Below, piece by piece: positions 11,712 to 18,720 of a DNA stretch of 18,743 nt. Both the position numbers and the translations under genes were made by a program. Source of the stretch: Candidatus Aenigmatarchaeota archaeon (GTDB lineage: Archaea > Aenigmatarchaeota > Aenigmatarchaeia > QMZP01); contig JBDRSV010000013.1 of the NCBI GenBank assembly GCA_043824495.1, forward strand, positions 1-18,743, read 5' to 3'. Positions within the stretch are counted from its first letter, which is position 1, and every line of letters starts with the position of its first letter. The notes below the pieces were generated by a model. That model was not told the DNA's origin and did not search any database. It worked only from the letters and a program-made list of their open reading frames with translations.

Positions 11712-14333
11712 ATGAACGTACAAATACTTGATTTGGATTATGTAATTGTGAATGAAAGACCAATAATAAGAATATTTGGTAGAAACGAACAAAACAAATC
11801 TACATGTGTTTTCTATAAAGGTGTTGAACCATTCTTTTACACCACAGGTGACGTCGAAAAAATACTAGGGGACGATCCTCAAATAGTCAGAGTAGAAAAC
11901 GTTAAGAGGAAAGATATTTCTGTAAACAAGGAAATTGATATCAAGAAAGTCACAATAAAAAACCCATCAAAGACACCAGATCTGAGAACAAGGTTGGTAG
12001 AGGCTGGAGCTGATGTTTTTGAAGCTGATATTTTATTCAAATATAGATTCATGGCAGATAATGAATTGAGGGGGAGTAGTTGGATAAGTGTAACTGGAGG
12101 AACCGCTGCTACTGGTACTGTTCTCTCTGAAAATAAAATAGAAGCAAAACAAATAAAACCAATTAAAAAGCCGGAAGAGACTGATTTGAAGTATGCAGCT
12201 TTTGATATTGAGTGTGTTCCTACAAAAGCAGGCGAAATTCCTGATGCAAGAAGTGATCCAATAATCATGATAGCATTTGCGTTCAATAAACCTTACAAAG
12301 GACAGAATAATATTGTTCTATCAACTAGACCCGATCCTGGAGTGACGAGCTTTGCTACAGAAAAAGAAATGCTGGTAGAATTCATTAACATTATCAATAA
12401 TTTCGATGCTGACATTATAACAGGATTTAATGTGAACAATTTCGATATACCATATGTACTTGAAAGAATGAAAAAGAAGGGTGTGAGGCCTGTTTTTGGT
12501 AGATGTGCATCAAAACAGGTTATGGCCAAGAAAATGATGAATAGACACAAAATAATAATTACCGGCCGTGTTATTGTGGATAGTTATGAGCTTGTTAAGA
12601 AAGATTTCTCTTTGAAAAGGTACAATCTGAATACTGTCGCGAAAGAGCTTTTAGGTGAAGAGAAGATTGATGTTAAACATTCTGAAATTGAAAAATTATG
12701 GAACGGCAACCAAGAAGGATACAAAAAACTTATAAAATATAATCTTGTGGACGCTGAGTTGGCTCTAAGATTAGTGATTAAACACAATCTTGTAGACAAA
12801 TATAAAGCTCTTAGTAAAGTGTCTGGTGTACTTTTACAGGACAGCTTGGATAGTGGAGAAAGCACAAGAATTGAAAATTTCTTGTTAAGAGAATTTAACA
12901 AGGAAGGATATATTTTCCCCTCGAAACCATCAGCATCTGAAATAGCCAAACGTGATTCCAGAAAGAAAGTCGAACTAAAGGGCGGGTTTGTCATTGAGCC
13001 GATTAAAGATCTGCATAGCGATGTTGTTGTTCTAGATTTCAAATCAATGTACCCTTCAATTATTATTGGATTCAATATTTGTCCTACCACACTATCAAAA
13101 GAGGGCGACAATCTCATAACAACTCCGGGAGGTGTCACTTTCTTACCGAAGAACGTAAAACAAGGAATTATTCCGCGAATTGTAACTGAGTTAATGAGTA
13201 AAAGACAATCGGCTAAAAGGAGATTAAAAAAGGAAGACGATGTACTGAAGAAGAGGGTATTAGATGCAGAACAGTGGGCTTTGAAGATTATGGCCAATGC
13301 ATTTTACGGGTATCTTGGATATTCCAGAGCTAAAGTGTATAATCTTGATTTAGGAAATGCTATTACTTCTTGTGGTAGAGACATAATACAAAAAACGAAA
13401 CTCGCTATTGAAAATGAATATGGATATACCGTTGTTTACGGGGACACAGATTCTGTTATGGTTAAGCTTAATACAGATGACCTTGAAGAGCTCGGAAAAA
13501 TAGCAAGTAGGATGGCTGCGGAGATCACCAAAAAACTACCAGAATCCATCGAATTGGAATTTGAAAAGATATTCAAGAGGTTTTTACCTCTCACAAAAAA
13601 GAGATATGTTGCCTGGAAATTCGAGCCCAAGGGAGATGGATGGAAAGAAGGGATGGAGATGAAGGGCATAGAAACCGTGAGGAGAGATTGGTGTGAACTT
13701 GTGTCAGAATGTATGACAAATGTAATATCCATCATCCTGAAAAAGGATGATGTTAAAGGCGCTGTGAAGTATTTCAAAAGTATTATTAATGATTTACTTG
13801 AAGGAAGGGTTCCTATAAACAAGTTGGTTATTACGAAAGGCATGAGTAAACCCGTTAAGAGTTACGTAGGAATCCAACCTCATATAGAACTTGTGAAGAA
13901 ACTTCAACAAAGAGGTGAAGCTCCTGGTATAGGTGATAGAATTGGATATGTTATAATTAAGGGAACTGAAATGCTTTCCAAGAGAGCCGAAGATCCTTCA
14001 TATGTAATTGAGAAGGGACTTCAGATAGACTCTAGATATTATATTGAAAATCAACTGCTTCCACCAATAGAAAGAATATTTTCCGGTCTAAAAATTTCCA
14101 AATCAGAACTTCTTGGTGGTGGAAAACAAATGGGAATCTTTGATGCACTCAAGAAACACGAAGAAAAGCAAGTAGACAAAGAGATACCAATAGAACAAGT
14201 GAGAGGATTTATTTGCACCAAATGTAACAAATCCTATTCACGTGTACCATTAGTAGGAGCATGTGAATGTGGAGGCAACATATTATTTTCTTCTGAAAAG
14301 GGTCCGGTAGGAACTGTTTTGGTTAGTAACTAA
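11712..14333 (+). CDS. polB: Family B DNA polymerase (archaeal B3-like) with C-terminal Zn-finger extension
   Basis: Exo I FDIE, Exo II GFNVNNFD, Exo III YNLVD; polymerase motifs DFKSMYPSII, KIMANAFYGY, YGDTDS, TKKRY, KGIETVRRD; PIP-like QMGIFDAL; then CTKC-x12-CEC. Confidence 0.97.
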   Translation: MNVQILDLDYVIVNERPIIRIFGRNEQNKSTCVFYKGVEPFFYTTGDVEKILGDDPQIVRVENVKRKDISVNKEIDIKKVTIKNPSKTPDLRTRLVEAGADVFEADILFKYRFMADNELRGSSWISVTGGTAATGTVLSENKIEAKQIKPIKKPEETDLKYAAFDIECVPTKAGEIPDARSDPIIMIAFAFNKPYKGQNNIVLSTRPDPGVTSFATEKEMLVEFINIINNFDADIITGFNVNNFDIPYVLERMKKKGVRPVFGRCASKQVMAKKMMNRHKIIITGRVIVDSYELVKKDFSLKRYNLNTVAKELLGEEKIDVKHSEIEKLWNGNQEGYKKLIKYNLVDAELALRLVIKHNLVDKYKALSKVSGVLLQDSLDSGESTRIENFLLREFNKEGYIFPSKPSASEIAKRDSRKKVELKGGFVIEPIKDLHSDVVVLDFKSMYPSIIIGFNICPTTLSKEGDNLITTPGGVTFLPKNVKQGIIPRIVTELMSKRQSAKRRLKKEDDVLKKRVLDAEQWALKIMANAFYGYLGYSRAKVYNLDLGNAITSCGRDIIQKTKLAIENEYGYTVVYGDTDSVMVKLNTDDLEELGKIASRMAAEITKKLPESIELEFEKIFKRFLPLTKKRYVAWKFEPKGDGWKEGMEMKGIETVRRDWCELVSECMTNVISIILKKDDVKGAVKYFKSIINDLLEGRVPINKLVITKGMSKPVKSYVGIQPHIELVKKLQQRGEAPGIGDRIGYVIIKGTEMLSKRAEDPSYVIEKGLQIDSRYYIENQLLPPIERIFSGLKISKSELLGGGKQMGIFDALKKHEEKQVDKEIPIEQVRGFICTKCNKSYSRVPLVGACECGGNILFSSEKGPVGTVLVSN

Positions 14334-14767
14334 TTTAAATCTACCACCCCATTCACGTGTATGGATGCAACAGATGCATCATATAGAGGAGATTCTTTTG
14401 ATTATTGTGGGTGGGATCCGGATAATAGAAGATACTCGTGTTTATCTACGAAGAGGCAAAAGAATTCCTGGTAGTGTATAACCCTGGATATTAATCATTT
14501 ACTGACCATGTGAAGTATAACAGTGTTATGTGAATATTTCTGGTTTTTACACACCAAAAAAATGAACTTCATGGCATGCTGATTTCTAGGACACACAATT
14601 CACATCACAATTTACGTGAAGTTCCACTAGAAGGGAGGGGGTATTCCATGTGAAGTGTGGGTCCCTTCACAAATATTCATTTCGGCACACTGCGACACGT
14701 TCCATATGCAACGAGGGGGTGTATTTCACGTTACTGTGTGTGAGCTTCACTGAACCAGTCAATCCAG
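14334..14767. other. Putative replication origin (ORB-containing intergenic region)
   Basis: 433-bp gap between convergent genes with no long ORF. It holds two G-string ORB-like boxes, mini-ORB-like TTCCATGTGAAG (14644-14655) and a weaker inverted TCCA-N11-GGGGT (14346-14365), and lies within a polB/DP1-like/cdc6 cluster. Confidence 0.65.
14621..14720 (+). repeat. Pair of ORB-like direct repeats with G-strings
   Basis: GTTCCACTAGAAGGGAGGGGGT (14621-14642) and GTTCCATATGCAACGAGGGGGT (14699-14720): 16/22 identical, 78-bp period. Resembles the archaeal ORB pattern TTCCA-N3-GAAA...GGGGT. Confidence 0.75.
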
Positions 14768-15973
14768 TTAGATGAATATACCTGAATAAAACATGATTAA
14801 TGGTAACATGAGCACGCCCATACTCATACTACGCTTAACACCGTAAACTATTGGTAAAATACCAATAGCAGTTGAAACGAACAACACCAAAAGACCAATC
14901 GGTCCAGCTAATACCAATGTCATTATTACCAAAAACACTATTATGCTTTTGGTCATCTTAGAGTAATTTATTTTTTCTAAAACTTTTACCATTGGATTCA
15001 AGATCTTCATCAACAAAAGAGACGAAATCCCTGTAGCGAAAAGCGCGACTCCTAGTAAAATTAAGAGATCGGTAAAACCAAAAACTTCGATCAAATTCTC
15101 CACAGCAACAGCAGCTCCACTTCTAGCTCTTGATATAGTGTATAAAGATATTAATGAAAATAAAGCCACCACTGTGTTTATAGTGCCTATTGATATCAAG
15201 AATTCTTGTATGTTATTTTTTCTTGTTATTTGTTGTGTAAGAACAGTTGCCTGAGCAGCCCCAACACCTGGCAACACACCTAAAAACATACCGGAGAAAA
15301 CACCTTTCACAACACCAGAGATTATAATTTTATTTTTAATTCTAGGTAATCGTGTATTCTGCTTTGGTATGTTTGGTTTTTTATTAGCACTAATTACTAG
15401 TGCACTCATACCGAAAAGTCCCGTGAACACCGGAAAAAGAACTATGTGTAAAGGTAATATGTATGCATTCAATGTTAACATTCCTAAGATTCCCGATAAG
15501 AAAAAAATCAAGAGCGCGCACAATTTTTTTGTCCCTCTCTCTGTGAAAACCATCACCACGACAATTCCAATCAAAATTATGTGAATGTAGTTTTGAATAT
15601 TCTGATAAATGAAAGGTATAATCACTAACATTGGGAAGAATAGAATTAATGTTAACAACATCCCTCCAACACCACCCATAACAGTCAAATAAATTGCATG
15701 TATTCCTCTTCCTGTTAGTAGAAGCATGTGGCCAGGAAGTACGGACAGCGCAGTGTCTGCTTCTGGAGCTCCTAAGAACACGCTTGGGACGAAATCGAAT
15801 ATGGTATGTGTTATCGCCATCGCTATAATAACAATTACAATATTATACGGATTCCCAACAACCGCAAACCCCGTCAGTAGAAGTGTTATAGTATTCACGT
15901 GAAGACCTGGAATGAGTCCTGTTAATACACCAAGGGCACACCCTGCAACGGCAAATAATATTATCTCTATCAT
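14768..15973 (-). CDS. Archaeal TctA/DUF112-family membrane protein
   Basis: GLIPGLHVN, FLGAPEADT...LPGH, second-half repeat GVLPGVG; about 11-12 TM segments. No tctB or tctC nearby. Confidence 0.85.
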   Translation of the reverse strand: MIEIILFAVAGCALGVLTGLIPGLHVNTITLLLTGFAVVGNPYNIVIVIIAMAITHTIFDFVPSVFLGAPEADTALSVLPGHMLLLTGRGIHAIYLTVMGGVGGMLLTLILFFPMLVIIPFIYQNIQNYIHIILIGIVVVMVFTERGTKKLCALLIFFLSGILGMLTLNAYILPLHIVLFPVFTGLFGMSALVISANKKPNIPKQNTRLPRIKNKIIISGVVKGVFSGMFLGVLPGVGAAQATVLTQQITRKNNIQEFLISIGTINTVVALFSLISLYTISRARSGAAVAVENLIEVFGFTDLLILLGVALFATGISSLLLMKILNPMVKVLEKINYSKMTKSIIVFLVIMTLVLAGPIGLLVLFVSTAIGILPIVYGVKRSMSMGVLMLPLIMFYSGIFI

Positions 15974-16362
15974 CTAAACACTTCTATTATACCCAATCTG
16001 TAGATTATCTCCAACTCCCCACTATTCTCTGGGTATTCACTAATAATACCAGGAGCACACATAGAATTTCCTATATTAATTTCATATGGACTATTTTTAC
16101 TTTCGTTTAGGTGTATTGCGGTTGTGTTAAAAATGACGATTTTCATACTCCCGGTAGAATCTCCCACTGTAAAAAATATATGATTATTGGACACGGTTTT
16201 TGATTCTACTTCTCCGCATATTTTTACCTGTCTCCCAACATCCTCTATTGTTATACTCTCTATACTCATTTGTGTAGACGGTTGATTGACTACTAGAAAT
16301 AAAATCACGAGTCCTAGAACAGAAGAGATTATAGAAAGCATCTTCAAGGATCTGTTGTCCAT
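15970..16362 (-). CDS. Membrane-anchored OB-fold protein
   Basis: N-terminal TM helix, then VKICGEV...HIFFTVGDSTGSMKIVIF (OB-fold D-x-T-G pattern). Its stop overlaps the tctA-like start (ATGA). Confidence 0.8.
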   Translation of the reverse strand: MDNRSLKMLSIISSVLGLVILFLVVNQPSTQMSIESITIEDVGRQVKICGEVESKTVSNNHIFFTVGDSTGSMKIVIFNTTAIHLNESKNSPYEINIGNSMCAPGIISEYPENSGELEIIYRLGIIEVFR

Positions 16363-16385
16363 ATACTATTTTTTGGATAATATAA

Positions 16386-17291
16386 TTAAATAAATTCAAC
16401 TTTCCAGCTACTTAGATCAACTGTGACAGTTTTTGAAGTAGAAATTATATTCACACCCTTATAGATCTTGTTCCAATCTTGATTTTGAACCAACCAGAAT
16501 ATATGAGGAGCGTTCTCGATCAGAATCTGATTGTTTATTTTATTGTTGGTCGTGATCAATCTCCTTTTTAGGAAAAGTGTGGCTTCTTCTTCGTTAACAT
16601 TCTCATCTGGTTTGTAAACAATTATTTTCATTTTTGTTCTCCCTTTAGAAACCAGGACTTGTGAATATTTAGAATCTATTTTGTGTTCATTTTCTTCCTT
16701 CACGTCCTCGTCCGTGAAGGTTAATATGGTGTCTGCCTTTACCGATTTCTTCTCTGCAGTGAGTCCTAATATAATATTCATAGTATCTGTTTTTTGGGGC
16801 AGCGGTAAATCCGGTAAGACCATCTTTTTCTGTATTAGTTTGTTTTCTCTAACAATTCCTATTACACCTATCACAGTGTTAGATTCAACTGGATCATTAC
16901 TAACCACTTCTATTTCACCGGTAGGATCATCTATGATAAACCCGTGTGAAGTTTTTTCTTTTATCATTCCTATTATACTAACTTCAGATGATGTGCCTCC
17001 TATTTTGTTTATAGAAGTAGCATCCACTTTCTTCTCCAGGACAGTGTGAATGTTATTATATATGACATTGTAGTAATTTACAACATCTTGAACATCAAGC
17101 TTTGGTTTGATTTCTGGTGTATTTATCTCTATTTTTATTCGTTCTGTTTTATGTTCTTCCGGTTCTGTCACAACAACAGATTTGGTCCTCATGTAACCGC
17201 TTATATTATTCTCGTCTATATTAGTTAGCATGCCAGGGCTCACTAAAACACCCTTTTCCAAAAGTTTCGCTACCACTTCTTTCTTATTCAT
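16386..17291 (-). CDS. Compact, catalytically inactivated homolog of DNA polymerase D small subunit (DP1 / B-subunit-like)
   Basis: DP1-like segments: LLEKGVLVSP, VSIIGMI...IDDPTGEIEV (OB), LPDLP, FLKRRL, ILIENAPHIF, YKGVNII, TVDLSSW. No DxH, GDxxDG, GNHD or GHxH motifs. Begins 1 nt after the cdc6 stop. Confidence 0.75.
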   Translation of the reverse strand: MNKKEVVAKLLEKGVLVSPGMLTNIDENNISGYMRTKSVVVTEPEEHKTERIKIEINTPEIKPKLDVQDVVNYYNVIYNNIHTVLEKKVDATSINKIGGTSSEVSIIGMIKEKTSHGFIIDDPTGEIEVVSNDPVESNTVIGVIGIVRENKLIQKKMVLPDLPLPQKTDTMNIILGLTAEKKSVKADTILTFTDEDVKEENEHKIDSKYSQVLVSKGRTKMKIIVYKPDENVNEEEATLFLKRRLITTNNKINNQILIENAPHIFWLVQNQDWNKIYKGVNIISTSKTVTVDLSSWKVEFI

Positions 17292-17292
17292 A

Positions 17293-18540
17293 TTAGAAAG
17301 TGTTTGCTGATTTTTTCTTTGCGTCTAAGTATAGACCGTCTGTAAGCAAATAATTATCCTTTAAGATTTTCTTGACCTTCTCTTTTAGAGACGATCCTAA
17401 TAAAAACTTTATTTCTCTTGTCCTACCATATCTTCCTTTAGAAATGACTCTAGCATTTATTACACCAAGCATATCAAGCTCTGCAACAAGGTCCGATACC
17501 CTTCTCTGTGTTAAGGACTTTAAACCTCTTGAGTGACATATCTTCTCATATAGAACAAAAACATCACCTGTTTGTATGTTCTTTTCGCCTGCCTCTACGA
17601 GTTTTATTATACTGGCTATAACAGCTTGGCTTTGTTTTGGTTGGAATTTTATAATCTCCACTATCCTGTCCGTGTCAAGCTTTGCTTCCGCCTTATCGAC
17701 TAGCTCGGTTGTCACTTTACTATAATTTTCTCTTTCTGCGAGTTCACCAGCAATTCTAAATAAATCAAGTGCTCTTCTTGCGTCCCCGTGCTCCTGTGCA
17801 GCAAGAGCAGCACATTTGAATATAACAGCATCATCCACAACCCCAGGCACGAACGATACCTTTGCTCTATTAAACAAAATGTCTTGAAGTTGTTTAGCAT
17901 CATATGGTTGGAATATTATCTCTTCTTCTGACAGAGAAGACTTCACTCTAGGATCCAGCCTGTCCGTGAATGTTGTGTCATTTGAAATTCCAATAATAGA
18001 AAGTTTTGTCTTCACGAGGTCCTGATTTATTCTGGTGAGTGTATATAATATATCATCACCGACCTTCTTCACAAGGGCGTCTATCTCATCTAGTACTAGG
18101 ATCACGTTTTTCTCTTGTTCTTCAAGTGCTTCGAAAAATATTTTGTAAACTTCATCTGTCGGCAATCCTGTTGAGGGAACCCTCTTTCCCAGAATTCTTG
18201 ATAATTCTGCTAGCAATCTATATTCTGTGTCAGAAACTTTTTTCATTTTACAGTTGATGAATAAAACCCTTATTTTATCACTTTCTTTCTCTATCTCCGT
18301 CATCACATGTTTTGTACAAACGGACTTTCCTGTTCCAGTAGAACCATAAATAAAAACATTAGATACATTGTCTCCCCTTATTGCGGGCGCAATAATTTTT
18401 GCCAGCTGATTTATATTGTCCTCTCTGTGTGGTATTGTCTCTGGTATATATCGCTCTGTAAGAACGTCTTTGTTCTTGAATACTCGGTTTTCTTTTTTTG
18501 AATAACCACTAAAAATGTCTTTTAGAGTTTGTTGTACCAT
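17293..18540 (-). CDS. cdc6: Orc1/Cdc6 replication initiator
   Basis: IPHRE, Walker A GSTGTGKS, Walker B VLDEID, GISND, DPRVKSSL, HGDARRALD, and winged-helix LDMLGVI...GRYGRT. Confidence 0.97.
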   Translation of the reverse strand: MVQQTLKDIFSGYSKKENRVFKNKDVLTERYIPETIPHREDNINQLAKIIAPAIRGDNVSNVFIYGSTGTGKSVCTKHVMTEIEKESDKIRVLFINCKMKKVSDTEYRLLAELSRILGKRVPSTGLPTDEVYKIFFEALEEQEKNVILVLDEIDALVKKVGDDILYTLTRINQDLVKTKLSIIGISNDTTFTDRLDPRVKSSLSEEEIIFQPYDAKQLQDILFNRAKVSFVPGVVDDAVIFKCAALAAQEHGDARRALDLFRIAGELAERENYSKVTTELVDKAEAKLDTDRIVEIIKFQPKQSQAVIASIIKLVEAGEKNIQTGDVFVLYEKICHSRGLKSLTQRRVSDLVAELDMLGVINARVISKGRYGRTREIKFLLGSSLKEKVKKILKDNYLLTDGLYLDAKKKSANTF

Positions 18541-18589: not shown

Positions 18590-18720
18590 AAAAACTAAAT
18601 ATATAACACTGTTATAACACTTCTTTCATAAAAGTGTACTCACACACCAAACTTGCACATGGAACTTTTTATTATTAAAAAAATTTCATTTGCAAAAACT
18701 AAATTATAACATTGTTATAA
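18590..18720. repeat. 27/28-bp direct repeat, each copy containing the palindrome TATAACA-N-TGTTATA
   Basis: AAAAACTAAATATATAACACTGTTATAA (18590-18617) and AAAAACTAAATTATAACATTGTTATAA (18694-18720). Confidence 0.85.

Follow-up and report, generated by a model that had tools for sequence, protein, structure and literature searches.

A candidate replicase locus was analysed in a stretch of 18,743 nt (the window; positions 1 to 18,743 of contig JBDRSV010000013.1, GenBank assembly GCA_043824495.1) from a metagenome-assembled genome of a Candidatus Aenigmatarchaeota archaeon (DPANN), which comprises 1.01 Mb in 29 contigs and is 80 % complete. The locus, made up of five genes and one long spacer, very probably encodes the replicase of those Aenigmatarchaeota that lack DP2, the catalytic subunit of the archaeal polymerase PolD, and would consist of a family-B DNA polymerase (PolB) ending in a DP2-type Cys4 finger and docked on a structural, nuclease-dead homolog of DP1. 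A preliminary description, made from the window alone, had proposed that PolB captured the DP2 finger and recruited DP1 as a purely structural subunit, and this proposal is supported by the lack of any DP2 found, by the co-occurrence of the two genes across genomes and by a predicted complex of their products.

The polymerase and its C-terminal finger

The polymerase (P0001, 873 aa; 11712..14333, forward strand) was identified from its Pfam domains and motifs and is the sole PolB found in the source genome. Residues 101-309 (12012..12638, forward strand) form the 3'-5' exonuclease domain (Pfam PF03104, E 5e-40) and residues 377-791 (12840..14084, forward strand) the polymerase domain (Pfam PF00136, E 2e-114). 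The ExoI (FDIE, 164-167) and ExoII (NFD, 243-245) motifs lie inside the exonuclease domain and ExoIII (YNLVD, 343-347) lies just past it; all three are intact, as are polymerase motifs A (442-449), B (525-533) and C (YGDTDS, 576-581) and the KKRY motif (629-632), so that the enzyme is expected to be capable of polymerisation and of proofreading. Among solved proteins, the catalytic subunits of Pol delta from human (401 bits) and yeast (387 bits) score highest (E 1e-118), with Thermococcales PolB just behind (368 bits); judged by these scores, the enzyme is probably Delta-like and of the 'B6-aenigma1' type. The closest PolB loci are assigned to Candidatus Aenigmatarchaeota or to uncultured archaeon and include the closed chromosome CP070801.1.

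Beyond the polymerase domain the tail consists, in order, of the motif QMGIFDAL, a charged linker and the Cys4 finger. The first of these (residues 806-813; 14127..14150, forward strand) resembles a PCNA-interacting protein (PIP) motif, its G and Q do not vary among 29 homologous tails, and it occupies the position at which the finger-less PolBs of a DP2-bearing family, described below, end in QxxLxxF. The finger (residues 832-867; 14205..14312, forward strand) is of the DP2 Zn-III type, with ligands Cys835, Cys838, Cys851 and Cys853 spaced as C-x2-C-x12-C-x-C and a docking loop reading K-S-Y-S-R-V-P-L. It matches three DP2 models at their Zn-III region only (NF003103 positions 1042-1076, E 9e-6) as well as the solved DP2 chains of Thermococcus kodakarensis (residues 1128-1164; 6knb_B, E 1.7e-4) and Pyrococcus abyssi (residues 1120-1156), and in the same 29 tails all four cysteines, the leucine of the P-L pair and one glycine are invariant. 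The two features first described for this gene, an intact and proofreading-competent enzyme and a DP2-like Cys4 finger at its end, are thus borne out, the former by domain and motif content and the latter by profiles and solved chains.

Two further observations concern PolB frames of relatives. A single in-frame stop interrupts the finger-PolB frame in three genomes (G003:C3:55053-55295, TGA; G158:C21:8599-8835, TGA; G082:C3:40017-40250, TAA). The closed relative chromosome carries a second PolB-like frame (G041:C1:91400-92599; 664 aa, 224 bits) with one TAA inside, possibly a pseudogene or the polymerase of a mobile element.

The reduced DP1-like protein

The second component (P0002, 301 aa; 16386..17291, reverse strand) was recognised by profile, fold and alignment as a reduced, motif-less DP1/B-subunit homolog. 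Its gene, separated from the stop of PolB by 2,052 nt, starts 1 nt after the stop of cdc6, which agrees with the roughly 2 kb and 1 nt initially given for it. Residues 1-35 (17187..17291, reverse strand) make up an N-terminal helical domain that is conserved throughout the family and can be aligned with full-length DP1, residues 88-160 (16812..17030, reverse strand) an OB fold with a nearly invariant E-D-x-T-G loop, and residues 170-301 (16389..16784, reverse strand) what remains of the phosphoesterase domain. The NCBIfam DP1 model NF003118 matches, with its positions 48-219, the N-terminal domain and OB fold only (E 1e-13), and the Pfam model of the DP1/B-subunit phosphoesterase, PF04042, gave no match in the 301-aa protein. 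The phosphoesterase domain spans about 130 residues in place of roughly 250, with more than 100 residues missing, and an alignment with motif-bearing DP1 of the same phylum has motifs I-V (DxH, GDxxD, GNHD, H, GHxH) all replaced or deleted. The label 'dead DP1' is thereby borne out, and what persists of the phosphoesterase domain is a reduced core. The preliminary description had credited the protein with an OB fold and a phosphoesterase scaffold stripped of its metal ligands; the OB fold and the loss of the ligands were both recovered, whereas only about half of the scaffold is kept.

A word-index search returned one relative of the protein and an exhaustive search returned 712 family representatives, mostly of 270-350 aa, and the family alignment holds invariant and nearly invariant positions. 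A match to solved DP1 required a family profile: the single 301-aa sequence gave only a chance match with phmmer against the PDB, and a 13-member profile matches solved DP1 (E 1e-15) in two pieces, the OB region and a C-terminal phosphoesterase piece, the latter aligning to residues 432-494 of T. kodakarensis DP1 with GHxH replaced there. An AlphaFold2 model reached a predicted local distance difference test (pLDDT) value of 92 with a 112-row alignment and 31 from the single sequence. Foldseek ranked P. abyssi DP1 first for this model (E 1e-12), followed by POLD2, Pol31, Dpb2, POLE2 and POLA2, and VIA-align gave Z 19.4 and a root mean square deviation of 3.1 over 245 aligned residues against P. 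abyssi DP1 (5ihe_A) and Z 14-17.5 against the B-subunits, with model residues 49-301 corresponding to DP1 residues 192-613.

It is very unlikely that the 301-aa frame is a decaying relic of DP1 whose function is gone. Such decay would account for the loss of all catalytic motifs and of about 100 or more residues, for a domain no longer recognised by Pfam and for the annotation of the CP070801.1 ortholog as hypothetical, but 195 of the 201 phylum genomes carry an intact DP1-like frame, the exhaustive library holds the 712 representatives, some positions of the family alignment vary little or not at all, the fold is modelled with confidence (pLDDT 92), and the operon position behind cdc6 is kept. 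The ortholog in the closed chromosome (CP070801.1; 8857-9834 of the extracted locus, UCD07861.1) bears the NCBI label 'hypothetical protein', which indicates that short DP1 forms are missed by standard pipelines, and one other homolog has been named DNA polymerase II small subunit by JGI. It is of practical use to note that the DP1 remnant of about 300 aa is missed by Pfam and labelled hypothetical by NCBI.

Distribution, predicted docking and known systems

Gene content was compared within the order (41 genomes, namely the source genome and 40 relatives, 17 of them high-quality at >=90 % completeness) and within the phylum (201 Aenigmatarchaeota genomes); these genomes are mutually kin, and co-occurrence and complementarity among them are accordingly patterns and not statistical tests. 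In the source genome no DP2 (PF03833, NF003103), no PF04042 DP1 and no second intact DP1 were found, and neither DP2 nor PF04042 DP1 was found in any of the 40 relatives or in the closed chromosome CP070801.1, which favours the reading first proposed. The DP1-like gene is present in 40 of the 41 genomes of the order and the finger in the same 40, the remaining genome, 71 % complete, being without both. Across the phylum 189 genomes were found to carry the finger-PolB, 195 the DP1-like gene and 9 DP2. All but one of the nine DP2 carriers belong to one family of the same class, in which DP2 is present in 8/8 genomes. In this family DP1 is 460-523 aa long and keeps DxH, GDxxD, GNHD and GHxH (all five motifs in three loci of family f10, with lengths of 472-512 aa), and PolB is 762-783 aa long, ends in a PIP-like QxxLxxF and has no finger (five loci in five genomes). 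Two complementary states are thus observed, DP2 with a live DP1 and a plain PolB, or no DP2 with a reduced DP1 and a finger-PolB, and the co-occurrence suggested from the window extends through the phylum.

Several weak matches were examined and set aside. Those to the finger in the DP2-bearing family were rejected as PolB tails, as they lie inside the family's own DP2 of about 1100 aa, at Zn-III. Two weak matches to DP2 models in the source genome proved unrelated to DP2, one being a threonine-synthase-like protein with an N-terminal zinc ribbon (L004) and the other a low-complexity charged protein (L003). The PolB of the DP2-bearing family is also of a different, shorter kind, scoring about 200 bits to PF00136 against 385 for the PolB of the window. 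In G115, which belongs to another family, DP2 and a motif-bearing DP1 share a 3-kb contig (C64), and the genome has a finger-PolB and a second DP1-like gene as well (contigs C30 and C11); the DP2 contig is either mis-binned or evidence of a transitional genome.

A normal DP2, perhaps with an intact DP1, might lie in the unassembled 20 % of the source genome, with the 301-aa protein a paralog that binds that DP2. The 80 % completeness of the assembly and the DP2 and DP1 that stand beside a finger-PolB in G115 would allow this, but DP2 was found in 0/41 genomes of the order, 17 of them at least 90 % complete, and was not found in the closed CP070801.1 either, and the other weak DP2-model matches in the source genome are only the zinc-ribbon threonine-synthase-like protein and the low-complexity protein; a hidden DP2 is highly improbable.

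The DP1 of DP2-less genomes is itself of graded length. In several families with finger-PolB it measures about 340-450 aa and keeps DxH, GDxxD and GHxH (motifs I, II and V) with motif III altered; in forms of 364-407 aa (six loci of families f13, f14 and f19) GNHD reads GE.D or GNMD. A DP1 of about 300 aa with no motif left is the form of the window's order and, judging from the length of the frames, of some other families too. In a 13-row DP1 tree the three classes separate as clades, and since the tree is unrooted it cannot give the order of reduction. These forms suggest that DP1 inactivation came after the DP2-to-PolB swap and was stepwise. A true graded series, in which finger capture and DP2 loss preceded DP1 inactivation and some DP2-less lineages may keep a metal-binding DP1, is a tentative reading whose likelihood falls a little short of even. 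If it holds, the 300-aa form would be a minimal polymerase-docking B-subunit consisting of N-terminal domain, OB fold and half a phosphoesterase core; the graded shrinkage could order the evolutionary steps and define such a subunit for biochemistry. The DP2-bearing family, with its intact DP1 and finger-less PolB, offers a natural control for the swap. DP1 thus seems to have decayed step by step within the phylum, a modest addition to a known system.

Docking of the two proteins was predicted from an alignment of the DP1-like family and an alignment of the PolB tail (residues 780-873). The prediction passed its controls, scoring 0.71 against 0.46 for the best of 3; among solved complexes 58 of 80 attain that mark, and among mismatched pairs 2 of 110. 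At least 92 % of contacts are shared between the runs, and the pLDDT of the partner is >=65. On the PolB side the predicted interface comprises the finger loop S-R-V-P-L-V-G (843-849), residues 856-859 and the C-terminal strand (867-873), and on the DP1-like side helix 61-78, OB residues 109-126 and residues 250-252. The predicted contacts coincide with the positions that vary least in either family, namely L847 of the finger and, on the DP1-like protein, Y78 and the E-D-x-T-G loop. In solved PolD, the KxRRxP loop of Zn-III sits in the groove between OB and phosphoesterase domains of DP1 (PMC6355029), and the docking site predicted here corresponds to that junction. The outcome, with the finger loop docked at the OB/phosphoesterase junction, favours the proposal made from the window.

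The mechanism envisaged is as follows. The lineage would have lost DP2, and the Pol-delta-like PolB alone would carry out synthesis and proofreading. Past its PIP-like motif the enzyme would carry the Zn-III finger with which DP2 docks DP1, and its loop S-R-V-P-L would, together with the C-terminal strand, occupy the groove that separates OB fold and phosphoesterase remnant in the DP1-like protein. The 301-aa homolog would then act as a purely structural second subunit, much like a eukaryotic B-subunit, and its conserved N-terminal domain would probably link the polymerase to GINS and the Cdc45-MCM-GINS (CMG) helicase, as DP1N does in PolD and Dpb2N in Pol epsilon. What is observed of these steps is the gene content, the state of the motifs, the fold, the co-occurrence of the genes and their synteny. 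The N-terminal domain of T. kodakarensis DP1 (DP1N) binds Gins51C and couples PolD to a CMG-like helicase, like eukaryotic Dpb2N (PMC9023282). As this domain is conserved in all forms of the protein and a GINS homolog (G000:C10:41858-42163) is encoded in the source genome, the remaining role of the dead subunit is probably that of a tether from polymerase to helicase, by analogy with PolD.

It is unlikely, at somewhat higher probability than decay or a hidden DP2, that the finger and the 301-aa protein act independently, the DP1 remnant serving as an OB-fold or origin factor with Cdc6 and the finger as a DNA- or primase-binding module. Their independence would be suggested by the start of the DP1-like gene 1 nt past cdc6 in a shared operon, and the adjacency of cdc6 and DP1 may be inherited synteny, the gene order in Pyrococcus being oriC-cdc6-DP1-DP2. 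The finger also scored 0.46 with an unrelated protein in one control, and Zn-III in PolD also lines the nascent duplex (PMC6355029). Against this stand the co-occurrence of finger and DP1-like gene in 40/41 order genomes and phylum-wide, the absence of the finger exactly where DP2 is present, a predicted interface that joins conserved patches of both proteins at the known Zn-III docking site, and yeast two-hybrid binding in the same phylum (PMC12680538).

The docked replicase remains the preferred reading, and several points weigh against it. The source genome is only 80 % complete. Binding has been measured elsewhere on other members of the phylum, and for the source genome's own proteins the evidence for it is the prediction made here. 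Complexes of DP1 with the DP2 C-terminal domain (CTD) and of B-subunits with the polymerase CTD have already been solved, so that the success of the complex prediction may reflect memory, and the control in which the finger was kept and an unrelated protein replaced the DP1-like chain reached 0.46, which indicates that the finger is somewhat sticky in the model. The helical bundle through which DP2 and the eukaryotic catalytic subunits touch the phosphoesterase domain is missing from the PolB tail; its absence and the trimmed phosphoesterase domain could represent a co-reduction. The Aenigmatarchaeota tail has been called a 'degenerate' DP2 CTD with 'a different predicted structure' (PMC12680538), and the length of the Aenigmatarchaeota DP1 used in the yeast two-hybrid assays is unstated there and possibly that of a longer form.

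The pairing itself was taken as possibly undescribed in the preliminary description, but it has been published. The survey it cited (Kazlauskas et al. 2020, NAR 48:10142, PMC7544198) reports that DP2 is absent from most Aenigmarchaeota, pairs the 'B6-aenigma1' PolB with an inactive DP1 clade, 'Aenigma_GB_GCA_002789635-like', and proposes that DP1 inactivation 'could be afforded' since the CTD-bearing PolB has its own exonuclease. A later study (Nat Ecol Evol 2025, PMC12680538) identifies Aenigmatarchaeota and Baldrarchaeia as the only archaea without DP2 yet with DP1, and finds by AlphaFold3 models and yeast two-hybrid that Aenigmatarchaeota DP1 binds the tail-bearing PolB. With the pairing published in 2020 and the interaction in 2025, the PolB/dead-DP1 system is already known. 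The window agrees with the B6-aenigma1 system in phylum, in a probably Delta-like PolB with a single C-terminal Cys4 nearest DP2 Zn-III, in the lack of any DP2 found and in a DP1 without catalytic residues, and follows the same logic, in which the exonuclease of PolB makes the DP1 nuclease dispensable. Nothing essential sets the two apart; the window DP1, with 301 aa and no Pfam match, is among the smaller members of its family.

Archaeal PolD (P. abyssi 6HMS/6T8H) shares with the window system a recognisable DP1 N-terminal domain, OB fold and phosphoesterase core and a finger homologous to DP2 Zn-III. In the window system the DP2 catalytic core, the CTD helical bundle, all five DP1 motifs and roughly half the phosphoesterase domain are lacking, and a family-B enzyme serves for synthesis and proofreading. 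The CTDs of eukaryotic Pol alpha, delta and epsilon with their B-subunits (POLA2, POLD2/Pol31, POLE2/Dpb2) likewise combine a family-B catalytic subunit, a Cys-rich C-terminus and an inactivated DP1-type partner, whereas the window PolB has one metal-binding motif instead of two (no CysA/Zn-1) and no helical CTD bundle, its B-subunit is much smaller, and there is one polymerase instead of three specialised ones. The PolB3-DP2CTD of Baldrarchaeia (PMC12680538) is similarly a PolB fused to a DP2-derived tail, with DP2 lost and DP1 kept, but has a full DP2-like CTD, whereas the Aenigmatarchaeota tail is shorter and 'degenerate'. Finger-PolB with dead DP1 is the best archaeal model for the origin of the eukaryotic architecture of catalytic subunit and B-subunit and is so used in published work; the window locus adds one more clean, origin-linked example and no new principle.

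Probable origin spacer and neighbouring genes

A non-coding spacer of 434 nt (14334..14767) follows PolB and was singled out by two boxes resembling origin recognition boxes (ORBs), found by pattern match at 14621..14642 (forward strand; TTCCA ... GAA ... GGGGGT) and 14699..14720 (forward strand). Each is 22 nt long, of the form GTTCCA..G.A...GAGGGGGT, and such boxes occurred in 0 of 200 shuffles; an ORB-bearing region between PolB and the DP1-like gene, as noted in the first reading of the window, is therefore present. Boxes of the form TTCCA-N-GAA-N-GGGGT are found in the same spacer 3' of PolB at 9 related loci and a short way upstream of cdc6 at 4, and in relatives they are often inverted pairs about 70-100 nt apart (11 loci). 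They resemble classical ORBs with a G-string. The spacer is likely a replication origin, and where boxes stand both 3' of PolB and upstream of cdc6 in a genome there may be one origin or two. Rfam and ARAGORN detected neither a known RNA family nor a tRNA in the spacer or in the rest of the window. A 14-nt palindrome, TATAACAGTGTTAT, lies at 14516-14529 in the spacer and at 18603-18616 upstream of cdc6, with near copies at 16869 and 18705.

The initiator gene cdc6 (Orc1/Cdc6, P0003, 415 aa; 17293..18540, reverse strand) matches NF001625 above its curated cut-off (E 9e-152). Synteny was assessed in 17 named related Aenigmatarchaeota loci, and in 14 of them the forward PolB is followed by the spacer and then, on the opposite strand, by TctA and the OB-fold protein (both optional), the DP1-like gene and cdc6; in CP070801.1 a 214-nt spacer alone separates PolB from the DP1-like gene. 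The TctA-family membrane transporter (P0004; 14768..15973, reverse strand; Pfam PF01970, E 2e-53) lies between the putative origin and the DP1-like gene, a position kept in 13 related loci, and is probably not part of the replicase.

A putative two-intron tRNA-Arg at 548-648 was not supported, as neither ARAGORN nor Rfam at its gathering threshold detected a tRNA anywhere in the window, although this result is compatible with an intron-rich archaeal tRNA. The remaining genes of the window are housekeeping genes, among them those for the alpha and beta subunits of phenylalanyl-tRNA synthetase, a class II aminoacyl-tRNA synthetase, a glycosyltransferase and NAC. Wedged between TctA and the DP1-like gene is a membrane-anchored OB-fold protein of 130 aa (P0005; 15970..16362, reverse strand; Pfam PF01336, E 5e-9), which has an N-terminal membrane helix, is present in 4 of the 17 related loci and is weakly matched by the OB region of the DP1 model (E 4e-4).

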